From a virus (taxonomy: Duplodnaviria > Caudoviricetes): a stretch of 57,211 nucleotides of DNA. A program made the position numbers and the translations under genes. The stretch covers positions 1 to 57,211 of IMG/VR virus record IMGVR_UViG_3300025632_000017. One strand, given 5' to 3'. Numbering within the stretch: position 1 is the first letter of the stretch; each line of letters begins with the position of its first letter. Below are positions 3,003 to 21,210 of the stretch, piece after piece. Below the pieces are notes generated by a model. It saw nothing but the letters and a program-made list of their open reading frames with translations, had not been told where the DNA came from and did no database searches.

Positions 3003-3636
3003 CTGTGTCTTCCTCTCCTACCCTAAGTAGGGTATCCCAAAACGCTTTGTCTGTCTCATACCCAACGATATAAAGCGCTGGACTCTCTCTGTACTTCTTT
3101 ATCGCTGCCTTCCCCATAAGCAGCTTACCTGTCTTACTGTCGTTTATTGGACAGGGTGTATTCGCTAACATCATACTACGGAACACTATAGGGTCTTGGC
3201 ACAGTACAGATATAGCTGATACCTGTAACCCTAAGCCACCTACTTGCTGTGGTGCTCCTAAGAGCCTAGCGTTCTTACGTCTGTTACAAGCTTCATCCTG
3301 CTCCATCTTACCAGAGGATAAACCTAAGACGCTTATCTGTATCCCTGTAGAGCTTGGTAGTAAGCAGCTATCGTTACCGCCACCACCCATCATCGTAGGA
3401 GCTATCGCTGACATAACAGGGGCAGCTGAACCAGCACCCGTAGCGTTGTAGTTGTTAGTTACAGACTCCTCAGAGTTGTTACTGTCTACAGTGCTATTCT
3501 CGTTACTCGTAGAGAAGTCTCCAGTAACATCACCTGCCTGTGCAGTCATCCCCAATAACATCACGGAGATAAGGGTCACTGCACATAAGCTGAAGAGCGG
3601 CGTCTTTCTGACCGATGTATGTAAGAGTTTGTGCAT
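2923..3636 (-). CDS. Secreted Cys-containing hypothetical protein (start uncertain)
   Basis: Signal-like LISVMLLGMTAQA-G; several Cys (NDSC, ACNRRKNARLL, LCQDP, TPCP). Confidence 0.7.
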   Translation of the reverse strand: MHKLLHTSVRKTPLFSLCAVTLISVMLLGMTAQAGDVTGDFSTSNENSTVDSNNSEESVTNNYNATGAGSAAPVMSAIAPTMMGGGGNDSCLLPSSTGIQISVLGLSSGKMEQDEACNRRKNARLLGAPQQVGGLGLQVSAISVLCQDPIVFRSMMLANTPCPINDSKTGKLLMGKAAIKKYRESPALYIVGYETDKAFWDTLLRVGEEDTDEEIVEDNTPKLSLSERFRSSKRTRD

Positions 3637-3769
3637 CTAAGTTCCGTTGACATTTGGCATCATTAGCCGGGCAAGAGGAAGGTAAGACCACAGATGAAGT
3701 ACTACATGCAGTAGTTATACTCATACAAACCAGAAATGCAAGATTATTTAAAGTTCCCTGCCACGACAT
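3530..3769 (-). CDS. Small putative lipoprotein (79 aa)
   Basis: ATG at 3769 after GGGGTG; MSWQGTLNNLAFLVCMSITTA-C lipobox-like; 4 further Cys in the mature part. Confidence 0.55.
   Translation of the reverse strand: MSWQGTLNNLAFLVCMSITTACSTSSVVLPSSCPANDAKCQRNLDAQTLTYIGQKDAALQLMCSDPYLRDVIGDDCTGR
3713..3741 (-). promoter_or_regulatory. Putative promoter TTGCAT-N16-TATAACT
   Basis: Same geometry as four other sites in the genome. Confidence 0.45.
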
Positions 3770-3914
3770 TGCGGATTTCACCCCGTGCGATACCGATGTC
3801 ATGCAGTTCTTTGTCTGACATGTTAGTGAGGATCCAGTAGTCTGCACGTGCTTGTTGTGCCTTTTGTAAGCTTGCCAAGAAGTCTGTGAAGGTCTTAATA
3901 ATAAGTGTGAACAT
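3744..3914 (-). CDS. DUF1127 (YjiS-like) small protein, 56 aa; not in ORF track
   Basis: MFTLIIKTFTDFLASLQKAQQARADYWILTNMSDKELHDIGIARGEIRNVVAGNFK; L..(L/M)SD..L.DIG..R.EI signature; AGGA RBS. Confidence 0.8.
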   Translation of the reverse strand: MFTLIIKTFTDFLASLQKAQQARADYWILTNMSDKELHDIGIARGEIRNVVAGNFK

Positions 3915-4868: not shown

Positions 4869-5147
4869 TTACCACTTCACCTTATCTGCCCAGTAAGCTG
4901 CTGAGAGCTTACCCTTCTTAATGTTCTTTGCATGTCTAGCTTTAAAGCTTGCACGTTTCTTCTTCATGCGATCAGATTCACCCGCTTTAGGCTTGCCTGC
5001 TGTGGATGCTCCCTGCTCACCAAAGCGGATGAGCTTAATGGTGTCACCTTCCTTGGCAAGTACGGCGTGTGACTTGGTAGGGTGTTTAGGGGTACGCTTT
5101 GGTTTGTTGTAACCTGCAAACGTCTCTCCTCTATACTCAATAGACAT
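4869..5147 (-). CDS. Conserved basic phage protein
   Basis: KLIRFGEQG...RASFKARH...SAAYWADKVKW motif common in phage late regions. Confidence 0.75.
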   Translation of the reverse strand: MSIEYRGETFAGYNKPKRTPKHPTKSHAVLAKEGDTIKLIRFGEQGASTAGKPKAGESDRMKKKRASFKARHAKNIKKGKLSAAYWADKVKW

Positions 5148-5148
5148 A

Positions 5149-5394
5149 TTAAGCTTTACCTGCTCTGCTATTACGAGGGAAACTACGGTTCTTAGCTTTT
5201 GTAGTTACGGCTAGGTTAGAGCGCTTGTTATTCTTAGGGTTGCCATCCTTGTGATGTACGTCTTTGCCATCACCCTTTTTAACAACACCACCAGCAGAGA
5301 GTTTAGCACGAGCAGAGTTACGAGATGCACGTTTCTTTACCTGAGCAGGCTTACCTTGGTAGTTAGCATACTCTTTTTTATAGTCTCTAGCCAT
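5149..5394 (-). CDS. Small HNH-motif protein
   Basis: DGKDVHHKDGNPKNNKRSNL...NRS. Confidence 0.7.
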   Translation of the reverse strand: MARDYKKEYANYQGKPAQVKKRASRNSARAKLSAGGVVKKGDGKDVHHKDGNPKNNKRSNLAVTTKAKNRSFPRNSRAGKA

Positions 5395-5644
5395 AGTCTC
5401 GCTCTCTATCGGGGTCTAGTACGTCATTACGATCAAGTAGACCTTCTAAATACATCATTCGTTCTACGTAATCTAAGGTTAACTCTCTATCAGGGAAGAC
5501 TTCCTGTAGGTGTGCTCTAGTGTAGAACACTTCACTACGAGGAATGTGTACACGCTGGAAAGCTCTTACATCATTTGACGCTAAAGCAGAGTAAAACTCT
5601 TCTAATACGGAATCAGATGCGTATAGTTTTATTTGTTTAGACAT
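5387..5644 (-). CDS. Hypothetical protein (first late-strand gene)
   Basis: ATG at 5644 (MSKQIKLY); overlaps next gene start. Confidence 0.65.
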   Translation of the reverse strand: MSKQIKLYASDSVLEEFYSALASNDVRAFQRVHIPRSEVFYTRAHLQEVFPDRELTLDYVERMMYLEGLLDRNDVLDPDRERDYG

Positions 5645-5653
5645 GAATGTCAA
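5625..5653 (-). promoter_or_regulatory. Putative promoter TTGACA-N16-TAAAACT
   Basis: Perfect -35 and recurring geometry; overlaps the start of the 5387..5644 ORF. Confidence 0.5.
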
Positions 5654-5681
5654 TACTTTTATTATACAAAGGGGGAGAAAG

Positions 5682-5992
5682 TGGTACGTGCCGCAAACTA
5701 AGTATGAGGAGAGTGAGGGAGGAGAGAGTATTACTTAGAGTGTAACACGTACCAGTTAATGTAACGTTGTTTTATTTTATTATGGTTACATTAAATAAAG
5801 TATATACGAATGTTTATTACACTACAAGTGTTAAATTGTAATAATATGTGATTATAGAGTATTACTCTAGAGTTATAACTTACCTATGTCCACTATCCTT
5901 TTTGTAACACTCTCTTATAGAGTAATACTCTTCTTTATTTATTACTTTACTTTAGTTTTAACTCTAAGAGTAATACTCTGTGTGCTCCTGCT
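5682..5992 (-). ncRNA. Candidate structured RNA with anti-Shine-Dalgarno loop
   Basis: Downstream of promoter 5997..6025; ORF-free; hairpins 5682-5690/5746-5754, 5698-5704/5732-5738 and 5756-5765/5784-5793; loop reads UACUCUCUCCUCCCUCACUCUCCUC on - strand. Confidence 0.45.
5725..5979. repeat. Repeated palindrome AGAGTAWTACTCT
   Basis: Full copies 5856-5868, 5919-5931, 5967-5979; partial 5725-5735. Confidence 0.85.
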
Positions 5993-5996
5993 CCGC

Positions 5997-6025
5997 AGTT
6001 ATACCCATAGAAACACCCTGGTCAA
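5997..6025 (-). promoter_or_regulatory. Putative promoter TTGACC-N16-TATAACT at head of the late strand
   Basis: Near-consensus hexamers in intergenic DNA. Confidence 0.65.
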
Positions 6026-6919
6026 CCCCTAAAATGCACATACTGCAATTATTGTAACATTTTGTTACTGTAATACAGGGTTACTGCTTAGGGTACCTGC
6101 TCAAGTGGTCCATAGGGGGTGTCTGTCTCACATAGTGGTACTAACTAGGTCCACATCGGCCCTACTTTACTTAGGTTTACATAAGGCATCGCTTATATAC
6201 GAACTAAAAAACCACTTCTGTGTATTTGTACATATACGTATACCCTACGTACCCCCCATGGAGCCTGCCCCCTCCCCTCTTTATACTCTTACTATCACGC
6301 CAAACACTGTTTTTATTGGCTTTTTTATTGTCTCCCCTCCCCTGCCCTAACAAATTAAAGATAGGCTATAGGATAAAGCATTGTTTTTATTGCATTAGGG
6401 AAGTGATAGGTAGGCACTTACTTTGATATATTGTATATTCTGCCACCCTATCCCCCGATTGTTCAAGATTGTACACCTAGCCGTGCACTTAACACACAAG
6501 AGAACAATGCGAAACAATCCGGCTCTAATGTTCTGACTTGTATTTTTCTGCTCTTGATTGTTCTGACTATCCCGCAATCAATACAATGAAAAACATTTGT
6601 ATACCAAAACTCAAAAGTGGATCTTATTTGGCAGGGCTTTTTTGTGCCATTATATAGTCAAACAAATTGCTGCACCAAATCATGCTCTGGAATTGCCCTA
6701 TTGAATTGCTCAAAAGTGATTTGGTTTTATGCGCAGCTGCACCCGTTAAAACTCTTTAAATAGGCCAAAGCTGCAATTTGTGCCGGTAATCCCCTGGAAA
6801 TCTTCATTTGTAACTATATGAAATTAAACAATAATCGAAATAAGATGAAATTATTCTGCAAAAAGTTATCTTTTTTGCTTGCAATGTTTTGTGGGATGTT
6901 GTCTTAGTTGTTTCACGGT

Positions 6920-7208
6920 TTAAGACCTAAGCAATACGGAACAGGCGGCGATGCCTAAGAATTGCGGCGATGGTCAGAAACTCTGAGGCTTGAAACAGTG
7001 CCGCACGTTATTTGACATTGATGGATCCACCCCAAACCTAGGCGCAAGCCGATAATGGGAAACACTAGGGGAAAGCTTTGACGGACTAGCCTGCGGGTCT
7101 CTGTTTAACTAGCAATATGATTAACGCCTAATAAAGAGGCGCAAGGCTTAAACCTAGGTTAGTTTTTAGTGAGGGGCGGCATACAATCGCCCTTCCTATA
7201 AGTTAACC
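6920..7208 (+). promoter_or_regulatory. Structured early leader (boxA-like element, GNRA hairpin, long terminal stem)
   Basis: GTTATTTGACAT 7007-7018; TCAGA-AAC-TCTGA; GGC-GCAA-GCC; long imperfect stem 7157-7208. Confidence 0.45.
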
Positions 7209-7228
7209 AAATCAATGGAGTAAGACAA

Positions 7229-7819
7229 ATGACAAACTATGTAAGAAACATCCTTAAGACATACCGCATTGCCACAGTGTCAGACGTAGCAGATGGCGTT
7301 GAATGGTATGATAGAGCAAAGCGCATGGCGGCATGGATTGCAAAAGAGACTGGCATTCCAGAGACAACAGTGATCGGCGCTATGGCGGCTCTATCGCCTA
7401 ACAACAGATGGGAACGGAATTGCAAGGACGCTCTAACTATGTGCCAAGCGTGGATCAATGGCGACACAACAGATGACTTCAAAGTGTCCTGCTATAACAC
7501 GATGAAGCAAAAGGCGTGGTCTATCTTAGAGGATGACCTGACAACAGATGAAGACATTCTTTCCCGCCTCAATGGGCAGAAAATCCGCTCTTTCTACTCT
7601 AATATTCGTGGATTGGATGAAGTAACTATTGATGGTCACGCATTGAATATTGCAAGGGGCAAGCGTGAAGGCCTTACATCTGACAAAACAAACATGGGCA
7701 AGAAACAGTATCGTGAATTGCAAGCCGCCTATGTAACAGCCGCCAAGCGTGTGAAGGTTAAGCCGCATGAATTGCAAGCTATCACATGGACAACATGGAA
7801 ACGTATCCACAACATATAA
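7229..7819 (+). CDS. Conserved early phage protein
   Basis: 196 aa; GVEWYD, AALSPNNRWERN, KIRSFY, VTIDGH, LQAITW motifs; GGAG RBS. Confidence 0.75.
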   Translation: MTNYVRNILKTYRIATVSDVADGVEWYDRAKRMAAWIAKETGIPETTVIGAMAALSPNNRWERNCKDALTMCQAWINGDTTDDFKVSCYNTMKQKAWSILEDDLTTDEDILSRLNGQKIRSFYSNIRGLDEVTIDGHALNIARGKREGLTSDKTNMGKKQYRELQAAYVTAAKRVKVKPHELQAITWTTWKRIHNI

Positions 7820-10963: not shown

Positions 10964-11030
10964 GATACATGACCCGCACGATGAATGTTCTCATTGAGCG
11001 GGTTACTTACCTAAACTGTAGGAGAGAGAG

Positions 11031-11945: not shown

Positions 11946-12276
11946 ATCCCCCGAGACAATAAACAGAGATAACATTAGGAAGAGAAAAAGATACGACTAT
12001 GGTCAGGCTGTACTAAAGCGTTACAAAGTAAGGAAGGGTTGCGCTAAGTGTGGCTACAACAAAAGTGCACAGGCGTTACAGTTCAACCATATCAACCCAG
12101 AGGATAAATGTTTCCTTATAGCACAAAGGGCACATAATATGTACCTGAAAAGACACACTAAAGGTAAACAGATGCTAAGGTCAGAGATAGCTAAGTGTCA
12201 AGTGTTGTGTGCTAACTGTCACTGCATACTTACTTTTGAGGAAAAACACTTTGGTGTGAAGCGGAAGGGTAGGTAG
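11926..12276 (+). CDS. HNH endonuclease
   Basis: CAKCG...LQFNHINP...KCQVLCANCH. Confidence 0.8.
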   Translation: MAMTRVRSPETINRDNIRKRKRYDYGQAVLKRYKVRKGCAKCGYNKSAQALQFNHINPEDKCFLIAQRAHNMYLKRHTKGKQMLRSEIAKCQVLCANCHCILTFEEKHFGVKRKGR

Positions 12277-14818: not shown

Positions 14819-15027
14819 ATGAACTAGGACAAGGGTTTTTCGCTGGCGTATTCGCAATGTATGTGTTAGCCCTACCCTTAATATACCATATGGTAGAGCC
14901 AGAGGATGAGGAGATGGATAACTCTGGCCCTATCAAGTTTGCTTTCCTGTGGCCTTTGATTGCACTGGAAGTATTATATCGTATCTTTGTAGGAGAGAAA
15001 GACAATGATGGAACTGGCACTAATTAA
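14815..15027 (+). CDS. Small two-TM membrane protein
   Basis: Two hydrophobic segments; FLWP motif. Confidence 0.65.
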   Translation: MNELGQGFFAGVFAMYVLALPLIYHMVEPEDEEMDNSGPIKFAFLWPLIALEVLYRIFVGEKDNDGTGTN

Positions 15028-16231
15028 GACGTTACTTAACCGTGACTTCTATGAACAACACAAAGGCATTCGCTGCCCTGATAAAATCTTCACTAAGGAT
15101 GTACGCAAGATCAAGCAGGCACTAGATGCTGCCATGAGGACATATGATGGCGATCTAAACACATCAGACCTAGAGGCCTTGTTCTACTCACAGAACCAGA
15201 CGATGACAACTGCCACTAAGACTGCCTATGAAGATCTCTTTCGCAAGATAAATAAAGAAGACACTATCAAAGAGGATATTGCTACAGACGTACTTGGCAG
15301 TATGTTTCAGCAGTATGTAGGCGAACAGGTAGCCAACCTAGGCTTTGACTTCGTTAACGGCACACAGACCAGCCTAGAGCCGCTCAGACGTATGCTTGAG
15401 AACTACAAGGATGACTTCACCCCCAACCTTCGTATTGAGTGGGAAGACATTAGTATCGACACACTACTCAAGGCAAACGATCTACAGACACAATGGAAGT
15501 TTAATATCCCTAGCCTACGCCGCAAGGTAGAGGGTGTCAGTGGTGGTCACTTACTGTTGGTAGGCGCACGTCCTAACACAGGTAAGACATCCTTCCATGC
15601 CTCTCTCATTGCTGGACCAGAGGGCTGGGCGCACCAAGGTGCTAAGTGTGTGGTGCTATGTAATGAGGAAGCATATGAGCGTGTAGGAGCACGTTACTTG
15701 AGCGCAGCCTCTAACATGTCCATGGATGAGGTTAAGGCTAACGTAGCCCTCGCTCGTAGCCGCTATGAACCTGTTAGGAAGAACATCCGCATCAAGGACA
15801 GCACCAACAAGGATATGCAGTGGGTTGAGTCTCTGGTCAAACAAGAGAAGCCAGACGTACTGATCCTGGACATGGGTGACAAGTTCGCCAGCAAGACAAG
15901 TGATAAGTCCGATGTGTACCTAAAAGATGCGGCTATCTATGCTCGTAACATCGCTAAGCAATACAACTGTTGTGTTGTATGGATGTCACAGCTGAGTGCT
16001 GTAGCAGAGGGCAAGGTATATGTAGACCAATCCATGATGGAAGGCAGTAAGACAGGTAAAGCAGCAGAGGCAGACCTTATGGTTCTGATCTCTAAGAACC
16101 CCATTGTTGAGGGTGCTGATGAAGAAGATACACAACGGCACTTGAATATAGCTAAGAATAAGCTTAAGGGTGGTTGGCACGGTGTAGTACACTGTGAGTT
16201 AGACGGGGCGAGATCACTATATCAAGCCTAG
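15005..16231 (+). CDS. DnaB-like (SF4) replicative helicase
   Basis: GARPNTGKT Walker A, LILDM, MSQL, EADL, NIAKNK. Confidence 0.95.
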   Translation: MMELALIKTLLNRDFYEQHKGIRCPDKIFTKDVRKIKQALDAAMRTYDGDLNTSDLEALFYSQNQTMTTATKTAYEDLFRKINKEDTIKEDIATDVLGSMFQQYVGEQVANLGFDFVNGTQTSLEPLRRMLENYKDDFTPNLRIEWEDISIDTLLKANDLQTQWKFNIPSLRRKVEGVSGGHLLLVGARPNTGKTSFHASLIAGPEGWAHQGAKCVVLCNEEAYERVGARYLSAASNMSMDEVKANVALARSRYEPVRKNIRIKDSTNKDMQWVESLVKQEKPDVLILDMGDKFASKTSDKSDVYLKDAAIYARNIAKQYNCCVVWMSQLSAVAEGKVYVDQSMMEGSKTGKAAEADLMVLISKNPIVEGADEEDTQRHLNIAKNKLKGGWHGVVHCELDGARSLYQA

Positions 16232-16242
16232 AGGAGAGAGAG

Positions 16243-20281: not shown

Positions 20282-20693
20282 CTCTAAAACGTATCGCAGT
20301 GGCCTTGAAGTTGAGGCCGCTGCATACCTCAAGGATAGGCAGAAGATTGTAGCCTATGAAAAGCTAAAGATAGAGTGGGAGGATCTAAAGTACCGTACAT
20401 ACACACCAGACTTTGAGCTAGACAACGGCATAATAATTGAGCTGAAGGGGTTGTTTTCTGCTGCAGATAGACGTAAGCATATAGAGATACAGCGTCAGCA
20501 TCCTACACTAGATATTCGTTTTGTATTTAGTAATGCTAATTCAAGGCTTTACAAAGGAGCTAAGAGTAGGTACTGCGATTGGTGCGATCAAAAGGGTTTC
20601 CTCTGGGCTAATCGTGTGATACCAGAAGAGTGGCTCAAAGAAAAAGGTAAGCGTATGAAAGAGCAGCGTGTAAAAGTTAAGAGGAGAGAGTAA
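20256..20693 (+). CDS. Endonuclease I (T7 gp3-like Holliday junction resolvase)
   Basis: YRSGLE, YTPDF, IIELKG, DRRKH, LDIRFVF. Confidence 0.93.
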   Translation: MPKTNRRHNSKTYRSGLEVEAAAYLKDRQKIVAYEKLKIEWEDLKYRTYTPDFELDNGIIIELKGLFSAADRRKHIEIQRQHPTLDIRFVFSNANSRLYKGAKSRYCDWCDQKGFLWANRVIPEEWLKEKGKRMKEQRVKVKRRE

Positions 20694-21046: not shown

Positions 21047-21210
21047 AGAAGTTTAGTGTTACTTTTGTTATGAAGGTTGATAAGAATAATAACATACTAT
21101 CATCCTACGAAGACAGTCATGAGCAAGACATTCATGACTTGATTACAGATGTTATCTATGATGTAGATGATGTGGAGATTGAGAACTTAAACGTCAAGGA
21201 GAGACAATGA
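21043..21210 (+). CDS. Small acidic hypothetical protein (55 aa)
   Basis: ATGA overlaps both ends; MKKFSVTFVMKVDK... Confidence 0.65.
   Translation: MKKFSVTFVMKVDKNNNILSSYEDSHEQDIHDLITDVIYDVDDVEIENLNVKERQ

Follow-up and report, generated by a model that had tools for sequence, protein, structure and literature searches.

Cuckoo RNAs (CcsR1-4 and NfeR1; alpha-r14) are built from two to four adjacent hairpins of 24-50 nucleotides (nt) (PMC4615179). Each loop carries CCUCCUCCC, hairpin loops measure 9-27 nt, and the CIN1 subgroup lies directly beside an open reading frame (ORF) of the DUF1127 type, in the 5' or 3' untranslated region (PMC4615179, PMC8034643). In Rhodobacter the DUF1127 protein CcaF1 binds RNA and controls the levels of CcsR, an anti-Shine-Dalgarno (anti-SD) RNA, and Hfq binds the related RSs0680a (PMC8034643, PMC4615179). 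RNAIII and the Rsa RNAs of S. aureus mask the Shine-Dalgarno (SD) sequence with C-rich loops of the UCCC type (PMC4615179). The subject of the present text is a hairpin with an anti-SD-like loop on the minus strand of a viral record (IMGVR_UViG_3300025632_000017), the whole of which, 57,211 nt of DNA, is referred to as the window. Among phages, a further system for comparison is the PR' leader of lambda, whose 6S RNA ends at tR'; read-through there needs the Q protein, and a conserved anti-SD-like loop is not known from its terminator.

The virus record that makes up the window, 57 kb in length, is of the HMO-2011 type. Phages of this type are among the most abundant marine viruses (PMC9038755); they lack an RNA polymerase of their own, and the timing of their gene expression has not been described. 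The element reported here is an RNA structure of a subgroup of these roseophages; it is real and conserved, and had not been catalogued before. Nothing on it was found in the parts consulted of the literature on phage anti-SD small RNAs, on cuckoo, CcsR and NfeR1 in phages and on roseophage small RNAs, and a term search of the main text of PMC9038755 gave no mention of promoters or small RNAs, of DUF1127, or of regions that are non-coding or intergenic. A cmscan comparison with 4227 Rfam families, a check proposed in the preliminary description of this DNA, returned no match for 5000-7600 at E of 1 or less, and none for 5600-6050 even at E of 10 or less.

A conserved hairpin and its C/U-rich loop

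The preliminary description, made from the sequence alone, had proposed nested stems closing a loop, a promoter upstream and several ribosome-binding sites (RBSs) complementary to the loop, and direct reading found the coordinates of all four right. The outer stem pairs TGGTACGTG (5682-5690) with CACGTACCA (5746-5754), and the inner stem pairs CTAAGTA (5698-5704) with TACTTAG (5732-5738). ViennaRNA recovered this same nested structure on each strand, at -23.7 kcal/mol on the minus strand (z -7.57) and as a mirror fold of -24.6 kcal/mol on the plus strand (z -4.56), energies that were equalled by 0 of 200 shuffles in either case. The hairpin is real, not a chance fold. A covariance model finds a single copy in the window (87.1 bits, 5680-5757, minus strand), a 26-bit match on the plus strand being the mirror image of the same hairpin. 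In the minus-strand reading the loop is AUACUCUCUCCUCCCUCACUCUCCUCA, which has the same sense as the anti-SD sequence of 16S rRNA.

Relatives were gathered with the 85-amino-acid (aa) ORF that follows the hairpin as anchor, which gave 89 confirmed loci on viral contigs, 80 of them kept. A loose pattern of the hairpin arms matches 71 of the 82 stretches upstream of this ORF (the 80 loci, the window and Roseobacter phage CRP-207), in 32 distinct sequences. The 11 misses include four contigs that are cut short (L004, L016, L017, L044), with partial copies found by the model in L016 and L044, as well as CRP-207, in which the model detects the hairpin at 51.8 bits. The other six misses are L023, L024 and L078, whose hairpins are of different kinds (see below), and L075, L080 and L081, in which there is no hairpin. 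The arm pattern matches 95 stretches among viral contigs and gave one unconvincing match in one genome each of 185,579 bacterial and archaeal species, a search that covered the majority arm form and that divergent bacterial copies could escape. This match, on a Paenibacillus contig, was taken as chance: it includes a masked stretch, the loop is not C/U-rich, and the score is 17.9 bits against 39-95 bits for viral copies. A viral match on two contigs (L101) was likewise dropped as chance, being G+C-rich, with neither a C/U loop nor a TTGACA/ATG context. In this search the element is restricted to viral contigs. Pooled with their flanks, the copies comprise 56 distinct hairpins, and the hairpin is conserved in a subgroup of HMO-2011-type roseophages.

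The stem covaries. Over 52 distinct sequences in an alignment that is fitted to the covariance model, and so favours pairing, the outer stem is 98.1% paired, with double-sided changes at 6 of its 12 pairs and 18 compensatory cells (for instance, G-C became A-U in 3 cells, and in 8 others C-G became U-A). The covariation score was reached by 0 of 500 shuffles, and when the partner is moved by 1-3 columns pairing falls to 17-51%. An independent MAFFT alignment of 33 sequences, analysed with RNAalifold, agrees on both the outer stem and the double changes. At the inner stem the MAFFT and model alignments are not in register, and helices closing the loop were counted from single-sequence folds instead; every variant has one, with 28 distinct sequence pairs among the 56 hairpins. 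The comparison across relatives that the preliminary description had called for thus came out in its favour, the stem covarying and the loop keeping its composition across all 56.

The loops of these hairpins are 18-30 nt long and contain 0-2 G; C+U averages 0.86 of the loop and is nowhere below 0.77. All 56 have both CUCC and CCUC, 46 have CUCCUC and 28 have CCTCC, and most loops are bipartite, with CUCUCCUC followed by NUG and then by UCUCCUC(U). The strongest argument that the single-stranded C/U motif is the functional part is that distant relatives swap stems and the motif returns. L023 and L024 carry a small 9-bp hairpin, its covarying stem differing between the two and its 14-nt loop, UUUCCCUCCUUUCC, identical. 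L078 has an unrelated long stem around CUCUCCUCC, with the tail CUUCCCUCCU. In CRP-603 and CRP-2 the C/U loop, of 25 nt, sits on a hairpin of ~100 nt (-37.4 kcal/mol and z -6.2 in the former, -35.8 kcal/mol and z -4.9 in the latter); the covariance model gives no match for either at E of 1 or less though reading and folding show the element, so the model is blind to that variant. An extra C/U-rich stretch lies 5' of the hairpin in L025, L028 and L036. The small hairpins, at ~1088-1118 of L023 and ~855-885 of L024, upstream of the ORF, are nearer in size to the cuckoo type than the window element is.

Among cultured phages the 85-aa ORF is present in eight isolates, and the C/U-loop hairpin in three of these, CRP-207, CRP-603 and CRP-2. 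The hairpin-less isolates retain the upstream promoter, a leader of ~200 nt and the promoter P3 described below. The host strain of CRP-2 is also the host of CRP-1, CRP-9 and CRP-13, phages without the hairpin; the element is therefore an accessory module that is not required for infecting that host. The three hairpin-bearing isolates with their hosts, together with these three hairpin-less phages on the CRP-2 host, make the element directly testable.

Promoters, genomic setting and neighbouring genes

On the minus strand of the window, the direction in which all elements of the layout are read (promoters P1 and P2, hairpin, tail, P3 and the 85-aa ORF), the relatives show a constant order: P1, P2, a GTAAC...GTTAC repeat, the hairpin at about -108 to -37, a pyrimidine-rich tail and P3. 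The minus-strand promoter that had been claimed upstream of the hairpin is borne out: of 31 representative relatives, 30 have a P1-type site (TTGACN-N16-TATAAC or TACAAC) at a distance of 298-446 nt upstream of the ORF start, and the block at 5931-6036 is 79.8% identical to non-coding DNA of CRP-207. P2 (TTGACA-N17-TAMACT), found near -190 from the ORF in 23 of the 31, reads towards the hairpin as P1 does. It is absent from the window, where AT-rich palindromes occupy its place. Since the closest relatives, L002 and L005 (ORF 98-99% identical), have P2, the segment at 5857-5980 has been exchanged; three copies of the palindrome AGAGTAWTACTCT sit in this segment, where most relatives have P2. 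Relatives of the window carry GTAACAC...GTGTTAC at the place of the repeat directly 5' of the hairpin, which may be either an initial stem-loop in the RNA or, on the DNA, a palindrome of GTAAC/GTTAC type that binds a protein.

P3 overlaps the beginning of the ORF. Its -35 box, TTGAC(A/T), precedes the start codon by 0-8 nt in every hairpin-bearing relative shown, and its -10 box (TAAAACT or TACAACT) follows exactly 16 nt on, inside codons 5-7, which are always GTA/ATA, CAA/AAA and CTA, without synonymous variation. These invariant codons and the weaker third-position bias of the N-terminus (entropy by codon position 0.64/0.58/0.78 over the first 12 codons, 0.57/0.41/0.99 over the ORF) point to a constraint at the level of DNA. 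The ORF N-terminus alters its length in a way that preserves the 16-nt spacing of P3, and the start codon lies upstream of the transcription start expected from P3.

No minus-strand ORF of at least 30 aa occurs in the stretch that P1 (and P2) read into. As two promoters lead into an ORF-free stretch that is followed by a hairpin with a T-rich tail and then by a fresh promoter, the layout reads as a short non-coding transcription unit, or as a leader ending at the hairpin. Among the 56 tails, T makes up at least 5 of the 10 nt after the stem in 42, a T-run of at least 4 occurs in 34, and 5 have no T-run next to the stem. A consensus scan of 5200-7400 gave no terminator-like site, its loop limit of 3-8 nt excluding loops of 18-30 nt; the scan also lists neither P1 nor P3, since it requires T at position 6 of the -10 box. 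The best promoter-like site on the plus strand, at 5638-5665, was rejected, as it is not kept in L065, one relative read by eye. Conserved promoters, U.G pairs in the stem (45 cells when read on the minus strand) and the pyrimidine- and U-rich tail all point to an RNA made from the minus strand. In agreement with this, the C/U strand folds more stably in 25 of 33 variants (mean -24.2 versus -21.7 kcal/mol; paired t, p 1e-4, a value that overstates the evidence because the sequences are related).

The two gene arms of the window meet close to the element. Plus-strand genes from 7229 to ~26860 form an early, replication arm, and minus-strand genes, which occupy 5644 to 1 and, again in descending order, 57211 to 27098, form an arm for lysis, packaging and the virion. 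Between them lies a 1.6-kb stretch, 5645-7228, without notable ORF. The hairpin is its final feature ahead of the first minus-strand gene, at the head of a late block of ~35 kb. Pfam identifies a tyrosine integrase (PF00589), a family-A DNA polymerase (PF00476) with a weak DnaJ-centre match inside it, a DnaB_C helicase, a Toprim_2 protein (E 1.6e-4), MazG and endonuclease I; a search of the window for tRNA and tmRNA genes found none. Table 1 lists the features discussed.

Table 1. Positions in the window of the hairpin, its flanking signals, neighbouring genes and complementary ribosome-binding sites
Feature	Position	Strand	Remarks
Conserved long hairpin	5682..5754	-	Outer stem of 10-11 bp, internal loop, 7-bp inner stem
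Unpaired loop	5705..5731	-	27 nt, C/U-rich, G-free, two halves containing CUCC/CCUC
10-bp inverted repeat TTAATGTAAC / GTTACATTAA	5756..5794	-	Directly 5' of hairpin
Pyrimidine-rich tail ACUUUCUCCCCCUUU	5667..5681	-	After stem; weak terminator-like U tract
Promoter P1, TTGACC-N16-TATAACT	5997..6025	-	Direct reading; RNA start expected near 5990-5993
Promoter P3, TTGACA-N16-TAAAACT	5625..5653	-	Overlaps ORF start codon and codons 5-7
85-aa ORF, function unassigned	5387..5644	-	First late-strand gene; coding by codon-position entropy
56-aa DUF1127 (CcaF1-type) gene	3744..3914	-	PF06568, E 1.1e-07, 31.9 bits against cut-off of 23.3
RBS GAGGAGAGAGTA before 117-aa ORF at 20693	20681..20692	+	12/12 complement of loop, just before ATG
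RBS GAGGAGAGAG of DNA polymerase A gene (polA)	16231..16240	+	10/10 complement of loop, just before ATG
RBS AGGAGAGAG of integrase gene (int)	11020..11028	+	9/9 complement of loop, just before ATG
RBS region of Toprim (primase-like) gene	12255..12276	+	Weakest of four genomes -14.5 kcal/mol
RBS region of DnaB-like helicase gene, GGAGAGA type	14983..15004	+	Weakest of four genomes -13.2 kcal/mol
RBS region of MazG gene	21185..21206	+	Weakest of four genomes -13.1 kcal/mol

The ORF behind the hairpin has no Pfam or PHROG family. Its protein is modelled by AF2 with a pLDDT of 80 as four helices and has 25 invariant columns in 30 sequences; Foldseek gave no match at E 0.001 or better, and the best VIA-align Z over 48,161 chains, 3.0, is uninformative. 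Further along the same strand block, ~1.8 kb downstream of the hairpin in the window and with several genes between, is a gene for a DUF1127 protein, for which no PHROG family was found at E of 0.01 or less. A DUF1127 relative is present within ~2.5 kb downstream in 52 of the 69 hairpin-bearing loci with full flank, and in none of the four intact loci without the standard hairpin (L075, L080, L081, and L078 with its divergent hairpin). Conversely, where DUF1127 was found and at least 3 kb upstream is available, 19 of 23 loci have the hairpin 1629-2933 nt upstream on the same strand. All of these loci belong to one phage group, so the relation is one of co-residence, not of independent association, and the DUF1127 gene is best regarded as context of the hairpin, a candidate partner at most.

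Other observations concern the surrounding DNA. Over ~105 nt, the non-coding block at 6915-7020 is ~76% identical to a non-coding part of the Lentibacter phages vB_LenP_ICBM1 and ICBM3 that lies close to their genome ends; these phages belong to another group than the window. An 81-aa HNH_3 endonuclease gene at 5149-5394 on the minus strand includes ~75 nt of DNA that share 77-80% identity with Vibrio phage HNH genes. In CRP-207 (L001), the region free of genes contains, at 3440-3560, a long low-complexity run rich in CA/CG (CACACACGC-type repeats) followed by repeated AAACGAATCA words; the CA/CG-rich run has no counterpart in the window.

Predicted pairing with ribosome-binding sites and competing explanations

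The reading that we hold, tentatively and at slightly less than an even chance, is that of a leader-derived RNA whose loop masks SD regions. We infer the transcription, the 3' end, the action in trans and every target of this RNA as follows. Host-type promoters, P1 in the window and P2 in most relatives, would transcribe the element on the minus strand, and the transcript would fold into the long hairpin, leaving the 18-30-nt loop single-stranded and in the anti-SD sense. An RNA ending at the hairpin would measure ~310 nt from P1 in the window and ~130 nt from P2 in the relatives; given the promoters upstream, the U-rich tail and then P3 for the downstream genes, it would probably be a product of its own. 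The loop would pair with GGAG-centred purine tracts of RBSs and lower translation, as other riboregulators with C/U-rich loops do. The most consistent candidate targets would be phage replication genes (primase, helicase, polymerase, MazG), and host mRNAs are equally possible.

The feature expected of SD-masking RNAs, an unpaired C/U-rich seed complementary to GGAG-type RBSs, is present. The matches previously claimed for the loop at three RBSs are exact, each lying before an ATG, and Pfam confirms the integrase and polA labels. Apart from the hairpin itself, the two longer ones, at 20681 and 16231, are the only perfect complements of at least 10 nt genome-wide, and contiguous complements of at least 8 nt occur at 9 of the 81 RBS regions of the window. 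In 2000 composition-preserving shuffles of the loop a 12-nt match arose in 0.4%, at least three RBSs with a 9-nt match in 1.7% and at least nine 8-mers in 0.1%; the long matches therefore exceed what C/U composition leads one to expect. For the window and three complete relatives (G002, G003, G005), duplex energies were also computed between loops and the RBSs of the genes called in each. The loop complements purine-rich RBSs, as had been proposed, and does so more for early-strand than for late-strand genes (-8.7 versus -8.2, -9.0 versus -7.8, -9.8 versus -8.1 and -12.2 versus -8.7 kcal/mol in the four genomes), a ranking that a plain anti-SD 9-mer also yields. The early genes of G005 reach z -4.3 against shuffled loops. 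The orthologue groups with the most consistent complementarity over the four genomes are those of Toprim, helicase and MazG; these three have a worst case of -13 kcal/mol or lower, where 200 loop shuffles gave a mean of 0.08 such groups and 0 of 200 reached three.

The more specific proposal, that int, polA and the gene at 20693 are tuned targets, is weakened by comparison with relatives. Paired with each genome's own loop, the polA RBS gives -19.3, -17.4, -16.8 and -11.5 kcal/mol (strong in 3 of 4); the int RBS gives -16.4, -6.4, -16.4 and -11.9 (strong in 2 of 4), and the RBS at 20693 gives -21.6 in the window, -9.5 in G002, -10.2 in G003 and -16.4 in G005 (strong in 2 of 4). The long matches are rarer under shuffling, but they are no better than those that real loops of related phages make on the same RBSs. 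Nor does the pairing go beyond the generic SD kind: RBS-loop energies correlate with those of a plain anti-SD 9-mer (r 0.61), and because the shared loop motif CUCUCCUC complements the common RBS form GAGGAGAG, the relation is a generic one between SD and anti-SD sequences, not a tuned match. Conserved complementarity at primase, helicase and MazG is compatible with targeting and indistinguishable from generic SD strength, and the suggestion that the element forms an early-to-late or lysis-lysogeny switch goes beyond the evidence.

A number of results weigh against masking of SD regions by such an RNA. Loops of other phages match the RBSs of the window equally well or better, that of L040 with five 9-mers and eleven 8-mers. 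Relative to shuffled loops, the mean energy of the window loop reaches only z -1.5 for early and -1.9 for late genes, and since shuffling destroys the CUCC core this type of control shows only that the loops contain an anti-SD-like motif. A cross table of the four complete genomes revealed no preference of loops for RBSs of their own genome; irrespective of its origin, each set of RBSs has its best pairing with the loops that are longest (G005 or G004). The RBSs of G001, an unrelated phage without the hairpin, pair at -7.9 to -9.2 kcal/mol, like late genes of the window. The hairpin is also dispensable, there being no C/U-loop hairpin in five of the eight cultured relatives (CRP-1, CRP-9, CRP-13, CRP-345 and HMO-2011). 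With respect to the strand, a conserved A.C mismatch in the stem would be G.U on the other strand, and the purine strand is the more stable in 8 of 33 variants; the window tail contains no run longer than UUU, a weak U tract. Data on expression consist of assembled contigs of RNA libraries (runs X2, X8, X11, X15), in which contig-free bins (e.g., 6417-6617) carry no meaning, and these contigs, being unstranded and without true ends or levels, give neither the strand nor the ends of an RNA. A 324-nt contig from the metatranscriptome of run X2 (one mismatch, depth 9.3) spans 5681-6004 and stops one base past the stem, and a second contig of 251 nt at depth 3, which comes from another strain and shows three mismatches plus one gap, runs across 5478-5728. 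The end at 6004 is best seen as an assembly break, as it coincides with a strain difference of the CRP-207 type at 6005; that at 5681, which comes from one study and may likewise reflect a break in the assembly graph, hints weakly that an RNA ends at the hairpin.

A somewhat unlikely alternative is a leader element acting in cis as an attenuator or insulator terminator, which would stop P1 and P2 transcripts before P3 and set the read-through to the 85-aa ORF. The hairpin might also stabilise the 5' leader, and the C/U loop would then be a site for a read-through factor or a C-rich, G-poor patch for Rho loading, rather than a pairing seed. In each of the 56 variants, as in the divergent forms, the element stands at one fixed site immediately upstream of P3 and the ORF, a position that suits a role in cis equally well. 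Hairpin-less relatives share the layout of promoter, leader and P3; the tail is T-rich in 42 of 56 variants; of the RNA-library contigs one ends at the base of the stem, with a second bridging the hairpin; and the ORF, which has no SD, would be translatable only from read-through RNA, since the -10 box of P3 lies in codons 5-7. A terminator, on the other hand, needs no loop of 18-30 nt, nor does it need CUCC/CCUC motifs and C/U composition to be kept while stems are replaced. Five of 56 tails have no T-run by the stem and that of the window is weak, the consensus terminator scan was empty (by design, with its 3-8-nt loop limit), and the leader offers no purine-rich SD for the loop to sequester.

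The same loop could instead serve as a decoy or handle for a protein, such as the phage DUF1127 protein, host CcaF1, Hfq or ribosomal protein S1, with sequestration or processing as the outcome, which we consider quite improbable. CcaF1 does bind RNA and control CcsR, and Hfq binds RSs0680a (PMC8034643, PMC4615179), and the DUF1127 gene follows on the same strand 1.6-2.9 kb downstream (19 of 23 and 52 of 69 loci in the two counts above). Co-occurrence within one phage group is confounded by descent, however, CRP-207 has the hairpin and no DUF1127 match in the 2.8 kb examined, and the CUGGC loop motif discussed for CcaF1 binding is absent from these loops. Very improbable is a function of the DNA itself, in double-stranded or extruded form, with the element belonging to an origin of replication, a packaging site or an operator (cruciform, or polypurine/polypyrimidine tract). 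The 1.6-kb gene-free region is rich in palindromes (AGAGTAWTACTCT, GTAAC/GTTAC repeats), it adjoins the genome ends in CRP records, and the two strands fold about equally well; yet the stem changes are compensatory, 45 U.G cells would be mismatches in DNA, the loop is constrained in the composition of one strand rather than in a fixed sequence, and conserved promoters lead into the hairpin.

If SD masking is correct, a covarying anti-SD-mimic RNA would provide phages with a simple means of tuning their own early translation or that of the host, and the cuckoo-type principle would extend from bacterial stress regulons to viruses. A bolder version, clearly unlikely, is a viral counterpart of the CcsR/CcaF1 pair, in which the anti-SD-mimic RNA and the phage DUF1127 RNA-binding protein would together shut down SD-led translation late in infection, of phage replication genes or of host mRNAs; if true, this would amount to an RNA-level early-to-late switch in a phage without its own RNA polymerase. 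Should the element be no more than a leader terminator, it would still give the late operon of these phages its first defined regulatory landmark.

Comparison with known systems

The element shares with the PR' 6S leader of lambda its constitutive-looking promoters at the head of a late operon, a hairpin with a U-rich tail and late genes beyond. It differs in its anti-SD-like loop and in the further promoter P3, and no Q-like gene was identified in the phage. From intrinsic terminators it is set apart by a loop of 18-30 nt instead of 3-8 nt. In view of its place at the head of the late block, an antitermination RNA of the HK022 put type or a nut site, whose stem-loops close to a promoter render RNA polymerase resistant to terminators further on, was considered as well. 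With RNAIII and the Rsa RNAs it has in common the proposed mode of action, through an unpaired C-rich loop complementary to RBSs; there is no sequence or structural homology between them, the phage loop is far longer and in two parts, and its targets are predicted only.

The resemblance is closest to the cuckoo RNAs (including CcsR1-4 and NfeR1), in which, as in the phage element, a C/U-rich anti-SD-like loop is kept and stems are free to vary (PMC4615179, PMC8034643). The host clade, Rhodobacteraceae, is shared, a DUF1127 gene lies in the same transcription direction, and in S. meliloti cuckoo RNAs stand 5' of a DUF1127 gene as the phage element does (PMC4615179, PMC8034643). The parallel with cuckoo and CcsR RNAs drawn in the preliminary description holds for the anti-SD-like loop and for the DUF1127 gene in the same operon, and not for family membership, which was rejected. 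The phage element consists of just one hairpin, which measures 70-85 nt, or ~100 nt in the case of CRP-603 and CRP-2; exact CCUCCUCCC occurs in 0 of 56 loops, whose lengths fall in many cases inside the cuckoo range of 9-27 nt and in some beyond it; it is separated from the DUF1127 gene by 1.6-2.9 kb with several genes in between, where that of CIN1 is adjacent; the element is viral, with no bacterial copy by the arm-pattern search; and Rfam offers no match. It lies outside the cuckoo/CcsR family, yet plausibly works in the same way.

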